The notes beneath the pieces were generated by a model, which was given only the letters and a program-made list of their open reading frames with translations, was not told the DNA's origin and ran no database searches. DNA of 64,000 bases, taken from NCBI RefSeq assembly GCF_003790525.1, contig NZ_CP033635.1; one strand, given 5' to 3'. Source of the stretch: Escherichia coli (lineage in GTDB: Bacteria; Pseudomonadota; Gammaproteobacteria; Enterobacterales; Enterobacteriaceae). The position numbers and the translations under genes were made by a program. Of the stretch, positions 56,835 to 59,634 are shown piece by piece. The stretch's first letter is position 1, and the number at the start of each line of letters is the position of its first letter.

Positions 56835-57410
56835 TTACTTCTGCTGTACGCCTTCCACTGAAATAATCAGATCCACTTCCTGAGAAGCTGGACCTAAATC
56901 TGTTTTGATATTGAAGTCCTTGAGCTTAATTTTGCCTTCGGCCTCGAAGCCTGCACGTTTACCACCCCACGGGTCGTCGCCTTGACCAATTAATTTCGCT
57001 TCCAGCGTGACGGGTTTGGTTACGCCATTCAGCGTCAGATCGCCGGTAATATCCAGTTCGTCACCGTCTTTCTTCACGCTGGTGGAGGTGAATGTTGCCT
57101 GTGGATATTTTGCAGTATTGAGGAAATCTGCACTGCGAAGATGTTTATCGCGTTCGGCGTGATTAGTATCGACGCTGGTGGTGTTAATTGTCACATTCAC
57201 TTTATCGGCAGCCGGATTTTTTTCATCAAAGGTAAAAGTACCGTCGAAATCTTTAAAGGTGCCATATAACCAGCTATAGCCAAGATGCTGGATGCGGAAG
57301 TTAACAAAGGCGTGCTGACCTTCTTTGTCAATTTTGTAATCGGCGGCAACCGCTGAACCGGCAGAGAACATCAGGGAAGCGAAGGTTAAACCAAGCAGGC
57401 TTTTTTTCAT
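56835..57410 (-). CDS. yceI: Periplasmic polyisoprenoid-binding protein YceI
   Basis: 191-aa ORF with signal peptide [47 protein letters not shown]... Confidence 0.9.
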
Positions 57411-57413
57411 TTT

Positions 57414-57980
57414 TTATACTCCATAGTCAGATGACGACTTTCCCAGCATGCGCTTCAGAGTGTCGTCTTTATCGATGAAATGATGCTTCAGGGCCATAAA
57501 TCCATGCATAACGGACAGTACTACGACGCTCCACGCGAGCCAAAAATGCAGGGCACCGGCAAAGTCAGCCTGTGCGCCAGCGTCGGCGAGGGTCGCGGGG
57601 ACGTCAAACCAGCCAAAAACGCTGATCGGTTTACCATCGGCAGTTGAGATCAGATAGCCGCTGATGCCGATGGCGAACAGCAATAGGTACAATGCGAGAT
57701 GTCCAGCCTTTGCGCCAAGACGAGTCATTGACGAATAACTTTGCAGCGGACCCGGCGGTGGAGATATGACGCGCCACAGAACGCGAATAACCAGCCCCAT
57801 CATTAACAAAATACCGATGCTTTTATGCAGTTCGGGTGCTTTGTGATACCAGCCATCGTAATAACTGAGCGTGACCATCCACAGACCTAAAGCAAACATG
57901 CCGTAGACAATAATTGCGCTTATCCAATGTAAGGCCGCAGATATAACACCATAGCGTTCAGGGGTATTTGTGAATGACAT
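57414..57980 (-). CDS. yceJ: Cytochrome b561 homologue YceJ
   Basis: ATG at 57978-57980 (MSFTNTPERYGVISAALHWISAIIVYGMFALGLWMVTLSYY...), 188 aa. Confidence 0.85.
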   Translation of the reverse strand: MSFTNTPERYGVISAALHWISAIIVYGMFALGLWMVTLSYYDGWYHKAPELHKSIGILLMMGLVIRVLWRVISPPPGPLQSYSSMTRLGAKAGHLALYLLLFAIGISGYLISTADGKPISVFGWFDVPATLADAGAQADFAGALHFWLAWSVVVLSVMHGFMALKHHFIDKDDTLKRMLGKSSSDYGV

Positions 57981-58240
57981 AAGTGCATCCAAAACGAATT
58001 TGCGAGAGAAAGAAAATGGCGTGTCGGAGAATGAATTGCAACACAAAAATAACAAATCGAATGATATTTATTTTTATTTCAATAATTTTGAATTAATAAT
58101 GAAAGAATCTTCATAAGTTTAGTGGGTTCAGCATCAGAGATGTCTGGTGAGTGCTGTTGAAGCAGGAATAATCTCATTCAATTTTTCACGCTAAATGAAA
58201 GGGAGATTAAATATTTGTCAGTTTATGTCAGTGCGGAAAA

Positions 58241-58354
58241 CTAAAAATAAAACACATAGATCAGATCCATAATTGCCAACAATCCCCAGAGAAAAAGATA
58301 AAGCATCAGATGCTCGCGAATATTATTGATGAGATAGTGCAACAGCCGACGCAT
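58241..58354 (-). CDS. yceO: Small hydrophobic protein, likely YceO (37 codons here); below the ORF-track size cutoff
   Basis: Hand translation [45 protein letters not shown] 7 nt upstream of ATG (58352-58354); stop TAG (58241-58243). Confidence 0.5.
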
Positions 58355-58401
58355 TAAATACTCCTGTAAAAACGGCCTCATTCTGGAGGCCGTAATGATG
58401 A

Positions 58402-59520
58402 TTATTGGAAGCGGGAAAGCCTGAATGGCGTCAAATCAAAATCGCTTTTTTTGTCTTGCGCAAAATCGGCAGCTATTTCCCCTAAAACTGACGCAAATTT
58501 AAAACCGTGCCCACTCAGGCCGGTAATGAGCAGTGTATTATCGTGGGCGGGTAGAGTATCGATAATAAAATCCTCGTCAGGAGAATTATCATAGGTGCAG
58601 GCAGCGCCGTACAGGCAGCAACCGATACCCGGCAACACATTGCGCAAGAACGGGAAGGCTTCCGAACCATCGCTGACCACTTCCGCAAACGGAACACGTT
58701 CATCCGCTGAATGGATAACCTGGCCTCCGTTATGTTTGCCAATCTTCAACGCGTCGTTTTCTGCCGGAAAACCATAATATTGATCGCCATTGGGCAGTTC
58801 ACCGGTAAACGCCGGGAATTTATTCTTCACGCTATAGCGACCATCGGCCTGATACCAGGCAAATACTTTGCGTACGGGCTGGACAGGCAGCTCCGGGAGT
58901 AGGTCTTTTACCCATGTTCCCGCGCAGACAATCGCTTTTTTCGCCTGATACTCACCGTCTGCCGTTTCAATAGTTACGCCATCATCGTCATGACGAATTT
59001 CGGTGACCGGGCAGTTGAACAGCTGCGCACAGCCCGCTTCCTTCGCCAGTTGGATCCAGGTTTTAATCGCCAGTTCGCTGCGCAAAAAACCGGAATCAGT
59101 TTCAAATAAACCGATGTAGTTGTCCGGGACGCGTATTTCTGGCCAGCGGGCCATAATCCCTTGCGCGTCGAGCTGTTCAACGTTGAGTTGCCACTGTTCG
59201 GCGCTGTGGGCGACGTTGGCGAGAAATGCTGAGTCAGCCGGACCGAGGTTAATGACACCAGAGCGTACAAAAATGGGATCATCTTCGTTGTGGCGGGAAA
59301 GTTCATCCCACAGCATTTGCGCGCGGAGGACCAGCGGGACATACTTTTCGCCTTCACCATAAGCATGGCGAATTAATCGCGTATCGCCGTGGTGGCTGCC
59401 GTGTTGATGCGGTGGCATATGGGCGTCGGTCATTAGCACGTTTAAACCGGCGCGGGTTGCATAATACCCGGCGGCAGCGCCTACGGAACCGCTGCCAATA
59501 ATGATGAGATCGTATTTCAT
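58402..59520 (-). CDS. solA: N-methyl-L-tryptophan oxidase SolA
   Basis: 372-aa [37 protein letters not shown]... with FAD-binding GxGxxG. Confidence 0.9.
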
Positions 59521-59634
59521 TTTTTTCTCTCTGCTCTCATGGTTTAAGCAGAGTAATTAACTGAATGCAGATATACAACCCAGAAATGGTAAAGGCACCG
59601 GTGAGGTGCCTTTTGGGTGGATGGTCATGTCATG

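Follow-up and report, generated by a model that had tools for sequence, protein, structure and literature searches.

Comparative sequence analysis of yceO, a small gene behind solA in Escherichia coli with a predicted membrane product and a probable internal start codon

A reading frame of 37 codons is found on the minus strand between solA and yceJ in the window, the 64,000-nt stretch of Escherichia coli DNA analyzed here. The locus raises three questions: whether the frame is a gene, where its translation starts, and what its hydrophobic product might do. A sequence-only reading of this DNA had described it as an unlisted hydrophobic ORF with a ribosome-binding site. It had proposed the name yceO, suspected a C terminus different from that of the K-12 protein, and suggested a regulatory or toxic peptide. 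Read directly on the minus strand from position 58354, the frame runs ATG CGT CGG ... TTT TAG, and the hand translation is reproduced exactly. Upstream, the frame stays open for nine more codons up to a second ATG, and a mechanical ORF list gives it as 46 aa (58241..58381). The frame was unlisted in the sense that it fell below the size cutoff of the first ORF track; the word means nothing beyond that cutoff. The neighbors are solA upstream and yceJ-yceI downstream, all on the same strand (Table 1).

The identity of the frame is clear. The RefSeq PGAP annotation has a 114-nt CDS for a 'YceO family protein', WP_001253418.1, which is identical to the window ORF in its 37-aa sequence and in its coordinates. 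The Pfam family DUF2770 (PF10968) matches the 37-aa protein with 79.9 bits against a cutoff of 25 (E 1.3e-22). All 36 positions of the profile are aligned, positions 1-36 falling on residues 1-36 of the 37-aa form, which are residues 10-45 of the 46-aa form. The family signature, consisting of the NNxREH motif, Trp23 and Asp30, is present in full in the window protein. Searches of NCBIfam, PADLOC and PDB sequences with YceO gave zero matches.

In E. coli K-12 MG1655 the gene is b1058 (NP_415576.1, 'DUF2770 domain-containing protein YceO'), annotated as 141 nt and 46 aa. The comparison with K-12, which the sequence-only reading had named as a check, gave 100% nucleotide identity over the whole ORF, including the stop codon, and over the upstream region. 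Just two differences were found in the 501 nt compared, both in the yceO-yceJ spacer. The name yceO thus stands, on the nucleotide identity with MG1655, the DUF2770 match and the RefSeq product name. The suspected difference at the C terminus does not exist: the C terminus and the stop codon are identical, and the discrepancy is N-terminal, b1058 being 27 nt longer. The two loci are alike in position, ORF nucleotides, stop codon and the neighbors solA and yceJ, and differ in the annotated start alone, the upstream ATG in K-12 (46 aa) versus the internal ATG in the window (37 aa). On the minus strand of MG1655 the two codons are at 1119447 and 1119420, respectively. A 421-nt query covering the yceO region has a match in 5414 of 5426 complete E. 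coli genomes, with a median of one copy. The annotations under this match read "YceO family protein" or "DUF2770 family protein" and adjoin solA. The gene is already known, being annotated in RefSeq at exactly these coordinates, assigned to a Pfam family and treated in some published work.

Table 1. Coordinates of features in the solA-yceO-yceJ region of the window
Feature	Coordinates	Strand	Basis and remarks
solA (N-methyl-L-tryptophan oxidase)	58402..59520	minus	Annotation; upstream neighbor in 80/80 loci
GC-rich hairpin ACGGCCTC-CAGAAT-GAGGCCGT (58393-58372) plus T-run	58368..58393	minus	-14.0 kcal/mol fold and hairpin search
ATG of the K-12 46-aa form	58379..58381	minus	b1058 annotation; A and T end the loop, G opens the 3' arm of the hairpin
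Shine-Dalgarno (SD) AGGAG	58361..58365	minus	6-nt spacer TATTTA to the ATG at 58354; last G at -7
yceO CDS	58241..58354	minus	37 codons plus TAG stop (58243-58241); translation equal to PGAP WP_001253418.1; DUF2770 match
ATG of the 37-codon frame	58352..58354	minus	
Direct repeat cTGACAtaaaCTGACA (TGAC[AG]-N5-TGAC[AG])	58216..58230	minus	11-25 nt past the yceO stop
32-aa ORF in the spacer	58079..58177	minus	Appears unconserved in the alignment
TTGCAAT-N13-CGCCATTTT	58013..58041	minus	About 35-60 nt upstream of the yceJ ATG; near-invariant across genera (spacer alignment)
yceJ	57414..57980	minus	

The orthologue set was assembled by a pattern scan with one genome per species, which resulted in 80 confirmed loci or, together with the window, 81 sequences. 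The loci belong to about 20 enterobacterial genera (Enterobacteriaceae), including Escherichia, Citrobacter, Enterobacter, Lelliottia, Leclercia, Kosakonia, the Klebsiella oxytoca group, Raoultella, Cedecea and Buttiauxella; Salmonella is represented by arizonae and diarizonae. Relatives at 50-70% identity came out of an exhaustive search without a profile; some of them are over-extended gene calls fused to the C terminus of SolA. Over the 81 sequences, pN/pS is 0.285 in the yceO frame versus 0.85 and 2.6 in the two other frames, and the column entropy at codon positions 1, 2 and 3 is 0.78, 0.26 and 1.31, respectively. The ORF is 37 aa long in 71 of the 81 sequences and 38 aa long in another 7. 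The codon aligned to Met1 of the 37-aa form is ATG in 74 sequences and GTG in 5 (79/81 together). Purifying selection acts on yceO in this frame only, along its whole length.

A frame that is short, lies under the usual gene-calling cutoffs and directly follows a hairpin could be an untranslated chance ORF in the AT-rich spacer and terminator region of solA. The probability of this explanation is practically negligible, however, given that purifying selection is confined to this frame, that length and start codon are conserved, that SD sequences are enriched in front of it and that chromosomally tagged YceO is detected by immunoblot (PMC12529367). With orthologues in 80 loci and a clear coding signature, yceO is far more than a product of chance. 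The window ORF is a genuine protein gene, the already catalogued yceO.

The immunoblot band of the chromosomal YceO-SPA fusion corresponds to a very low level of protein, at least 10,000-fold below that obtained from pBAD with 0.002% arabinose (PMC12529367). The same study also lists YceO among the proteins detected by top-down mass spectrometry (PMC12529367). YceO is called an acid-stress small protein in secondary sources only; an acid-stress Ribo-seq/RNA-seq data set lists yceO as a known sORF with no significant regulation. In a Tn-seq table, yceO is weakly linked to gallium fitness.

The second question concerns the start codon. The AGGAG that had been noticed ahead of the internal ATG is indeed there, six nucleotides before it. 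Its predicted duplex with the 3' end of 16S rRNA has an energy of -6.9 kcal/mol, compared to -1.7 kcal/mol upstream of the ATG of the 46-aa form, where no SD can be read in the sequence. Among the orthologues, the duplex at the conserved start has a median energy of -4.8 kcal/mol versus -2.0 kcal/mol at random positions, and 69% of them reach -4 kcal/mol or better at this start versus 17% of random positions.

The nine additional codons of the 46-aa form behave differently from the rest of the gene. The sequence MRPFLQEYL is found in no genus other than Escherichia among the 81 sequences, and 24 of the 81 have an in-frame stop within the nine codons upstream of the 37-aa start. Inside Escherichia, the extension carries the changes Q6E (ETEC H10407), E7G, Y8L and Y8I, and the codon at -9 is TTG in E. 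whittamii, Escherichia sp. E1V33 and two divergent E. coli. Furthermore, the codons of the extension overlap non-coding signals, namely the 3' arm of the hairpin (AGG CCG), the T-run (TTT TTA), the SD (CAG GAG) and the spacer (TAT TTA).

Sequence comparison thus makes it highly probable that native YceO is the 37-aa protein that starts at the ATG at 58354. The ATG at 58381 probably contributes little to initiation, and the 46-aa start of the K-12 reference is probably wrong. That the 46-aa product, MRPFLQEYL followed by the 37 residues, is nevertheless the main one in E. coli is quite unlikely. In that case translation would start at 58381 and AGGAG would merely be codons 6-7 (Gln-Glu). This start is the one of NC_000913.3, where b1058 has 141 nt, and many older E. 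coli and Shigella records list the 46-aa form. The ATG is in frame, and about 75% of E. coli genomes match the start region without a single difference. The 46-aa ORF can also be translated from a plasmid, as an 11-residue peptide was detected with pBAD24 (PMC12529367), but that peptide reflects the construct and not the native site. Against the longer form stand the absence of an SD, the overlap of its ATG with a -14 kcal/mol hairpin, in loop and 3' arm, the TTG codon of several Escherichia lineages and the missing or stop-interrupted extension in other genera. The Pfam profile, moreover, starts exactly at Met10 of the 46-aa form, and PGAP picked the 37-aa start. Since E. coli proper has the upstream ATG in frame and about 75% of its genomes are 100% identical over the 61 nt of the yceO start region, a minor 46-aa isoform may be made in E. 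coli alongside the 37-aa protein.

In small-protein papers on Ribo-RET/Onc112, TetRP, PIRT-seq and Mg starvation, as far as their main text and supplements were available, no entry for yceO was found, and thus no start site of it determined by Ribo-RET, Onc112, TetRP or N-terminal MS. The value added by the present comparison is evidence that favors the 37-aa start over the 46-aa model of K-12. The choice alters the expected mass of YceO, which is 4719 Da for 37 aa versus 5897 Da for 46 aa or, if formylated, 4747 versus 5925 Da, and it affects the peptides used in targeted proteomics as well as expression constructs. In a small-protein proteomics study of 2025, the YceO plasmid and one of the two PRM peptides, of 11 residues, were built on the 46-aa model (PMC12529367). 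The 37-aa protein yields essentially one usable tryptic peptide, of 10 residues, and the 11-residue peptide is absent from it. If the native start is Met10 of the 46-aa model, the 11-residue PRM peptide of that study (PMC12529367) is impossible in wild-type cells. Reagents built on the K-12 start, both the 46-aa constructs and the PRM peptide, would then misrepresent the native protein.

The expression of yceO appears to be tied to solA. In all 80 loci solA is on the same strand and ends 50-116 nt before the yceO start, with one exception at 11 nt (L078). The linkage also holds in the 13 loci that have no yceJ match; in two of these the downstream sequence is not long enough for a decision on yceJ. 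Between the two genes is a GC-rich hairpin with a stem of 8 bp, which starts 9 nt past the solA stop codon and is followed by a run of five T (58372-58368), the first of which also closes the stem. In most of the 81 sequences the yceO start is preceded, at 15-30 nt, by a hairpin of -8 kcal/mol or better. The stems vary by genus (GGCCTC/GAGGCC, GGCTCCG/CGGAGCC, GTGGCGG/CCGCCAC and others), so that the structure, not the sequence, is kept. A T-rich tail follows the hairpin in 60 of the 81 sequences and is missing in Klebsiella, Raoultella and E. cloacae.

A scan of 57900-58700 with a consensus terminator model did not call the hairpin and found no terminator; we suspect that the hairpin was missed because one T is taken up by the A-T pair that closes the stem, which reduces the tail to four T. 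A scan of both strands of the same interval for sigma-70-like promoters found nothing. With no such promoter found, and with too little space to hold one from the hairpin to the SD, yceO is probably transcribed from further upstream, with solA as the probable source. The hairpin, which yceO transcripts would have to read through, probably acts as a leaky terminator of solA or as a 3' stabilizer. The label of terminator is uncertain because the U-tract is absent in several genera. The 3'-end mapping data of the PMC7815308 supplement contain a sole solA 3' end, which is internal to the ORF (1120419), and none at the solA-yceO hairpin; they are uninformative on termination efficiency. The gene yceO would then come second in a solA-yceO unit and be poorly expressed, being reached by read-through of the hairpin, and ribosomes would initiate at the AGGAG-N6-ATG site. 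Such read-through fits the very low chromosomal level of YceO-SPA (PMC12529367).

For E. coli, folding predicts a pairing of the yceO SD (GGAGU, 58361-58365) with GCUUCC (58406-58414), within the last codons of solA, at a probability of about 0.6; the pairing would create an outer stem that encloses the hairpin on the minus-strand transcript. Similar outer stems are predicted in E. albertii, E. cloacae and Cedecea. According to these fold predictions, translation of yceO is possibly coupled to that of solA in E. coli and would then require ribosomes that complete solA. Sequestration of the SD as a conserved feature of the family was considered and dropped, because the SD region is predicted to be mostly paired in only about 30% of the loci. 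A natural disruption of the solA-yceO junction is found in E. coli S9 (NZ_CP107122.1, 1748-2574; L003), in which an IS1 lies between the two genes, the 3' end of solA is truncated and the yceO remnant is annotated as 'missing N-terminus'.

On its other side, yceO is separated from yceJI by a spacer (57981-58240) and no terminator is called in between. A gene upstream of yceJI on the same strand could be a leader peptide or an upstream regulatory ORF for yceJ-yceI, but this role is extremely improbable. A distance of 260 nt, with a conserved promoter-like motif in it, separates the yceO stop from the yceJ ATG, and yceO is kept next to solA in 11 loci without yceJI (two more loci are too short downstream to tell). 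The conservation, moreover, extends to the amino acid sequence itself and is not limited to the act of translation.

The spacer has several features of its own. The distance between the yceO and yceJ starts is 370-377 nt in Escherichia, Citrobacter, Leclercia, most Lelliottia, Kosakonia and Salmonella arizonae, and 361 nt in S. diarizonae, and is constant despite the low identity in the middle of the spacer; it is about 35-50 nt shorter in Enterobacter species. Loci of the Klebsiella and Raoultella type have no yceJI; in them the convergent gene trhO directly adjoins the yceO stop. The TGAC[AG] direct repeat close to the yceO stop occurs in 60 of the 80 loci, in none of the 13 loci without a yceJ match, and is missing in 7 loci with yceJI. 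The repeat was rejected as a 3' element of yceO, because it is found only where yceJI is present, and was assigned to the yceJI regulatory region for the same reason. Judged by its sequence, it could be a -35 element, a direct-repeat site for a transcription factor with a 10-bp spacing, or both; a weak TAATCT is located 16 nt downstream of it in E. coli. The near-invariant TTGCAAT-N13-CGCCATTTT in front of yceJ resembles a heat-shock sigma-32 promoter (CTTGAAA...CCCCATNT).

The third question is what YceO does. AlphaFold2, given the family alignment, predicts YceO to be one continuous helix comprising residues 2-36, with a mean pLDDT of 94.9. The first 15 residues are polar and basic, with a net charge of +2 and a mean KD hydropathy of -0.63; the following 22 residues (16-37) are hydrophobic, with a mean KD of +2.05. 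By both hydropathy and the predicted structure, the hydrophobic helix is long enough to span a membrane. In 62 distinct orthologues, N10, N11, R13, E14, H15 and D30 are invariant, whereas R3, L8, Y19, L22, W23, A27 and Y33 are near-invariant. Conservation is periodic along the chain, with a peak at 100 degrees per residue that is reached in 191 of 10000 permutations. The six invariant residues and Y19, L22, W23, A27 and Y33 run along one face of the helix.

On hydropathy and the positive-inside rule, the basic N-terminal third (residues 1-15) would remain cytoplasmic. The part that crosses the inner membrane would be residues 16-37, with the C terminus at the periplasmic face and essentially no periplasmic tail. 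An invariant acidic residue within the hydrophobic segment and a conserved stripe on one face suggest a helix that packs against a partner. YceO is thus most likely, as far as the model goes, a single-pass inner-membrane protein that binds a larger partner; it would serve as a regulatory or accessory subunit packed onto a membrane protein larger than itself. Small single-pass inner-membrane proteins of E. coli are known to act as regulators or subunits in this manner, namely MgrB with PhoQ, MgtS with MgtA, AcrZ with AcrB and CydX with cytochrome bd. YceO shares with them the size class of 30-50 aa, a low abundance, a single predicted transmembrane helix and a conserved face of that helix, which suggests helix-helix packing. 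In sequence it is unrelated to these proteins, and the resemblance is limited to the likely mode of action. Overall, the joint explanation, in which the frame is yceO, starts at the 37-aa ATG, is transcribed by read-through from solA and encodes a single inner-membrane helix that binds a partner, is considered quite likely.

A short hydrophobic peptide at a very low expression level also recalls the type I toxins (Hok, Ldr, Ibs, TisB and ShoB), small membrane-damaging peptides whose translation is repressed by a small RNA, antisense or nearby, and the SD of yceO is predicted to be partly paired in E. coli. The likeness ends with the short hydrophobic chain: YceO, unlike these toxins, has no detected antitoxin RNA and is a single-copy gene with strict synteny and conservation across genera. 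It is syntenic over about 20 genera and under purifying selection over its full length. No meaningful Rfam score was obtained on either strand of 57000-59600, where no match had E < 0.7; the only two matches are to eukaryotic families at E of about 0.7-0.8 and were taken as chance, although an antitoxin RNA not yet described may exist. No promoter-like site was found on either strand of 57900-58700 and there is no PADLOC match. The gene has been deleted, and pBAD24-yceO has been induced for 2 h with toxicity unreported, in work that was not a dedicated toxicity test (PMC12529367). The invariant NNxREH motif and the Asp in the hydrophobic segment point to a specific interface rather than to a generic pore-former. 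A type I toxin is therefore very improbable. Of the earlier suggestion of a regulatory or toxic peptide, the first half is plausible in the form of a regulatory or accessory membrane peptide, while the hallmarks of a type I toxin that were tested were not found.

As for the partner of the putative membrane subunit, genomic linkage points to SolA first and to YceJ second. In the more specific form of this idea, YceO would be a dedicated partner of SolA, translationally coupled to it and tethering or modulating this soluble flavoenzyme at the inner membrane. The idea derives from the position of yceO 11-116 nt after solA in all 80 loci, behind the hairpin, with or without yceJI, and from the predicted pairing of the yceO SD with the end of solA in E. 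coli. It is rather unlikely; if true, it would be the first physiological handle on both YceO and SolA. More generally, the strict solA-yceO linkage and the invariant polar face provide concrete hypotheses for the function of YceO.

A number of variant copies were encountered. In E. coli 'clone D i2' (NC_017651.1, 197-307; L087, proteins P0065 and P0067), an in-frame deletion of 3 nt changes YLINNIREH to YLINIREH. The resulting protein of 36 aa, WP_001253737.1, loses one of the two otherwise invariant Asn residues, and the SD of this lineage is GGGG instead of AGGAG. The gene may be undergoing functional decay there. Other E. coli variants (P0036, P0052, P0018, P0029 and P0085-P0098) have in-frame expansions or contractions of LY/LF codons, a missing F, or frameshifted C termini. 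All variants of this second group are located at the CTTTATCTTTTTCTC tract, and this clustering suggests a slippage-prone sequence or assembly errors. In Salmonella enterica subsp. arizonae (L059) the orthologue is truncated to 22 aa, whereas that of diarizonae has the canonical 37 aa. Another protein, P0105, which resembles the Salmonella orthologues, has an altered and extended C terminus (…YLLSSDCFSLTLTDTS). The gene yceO may be decaying in parts of Salmonella.
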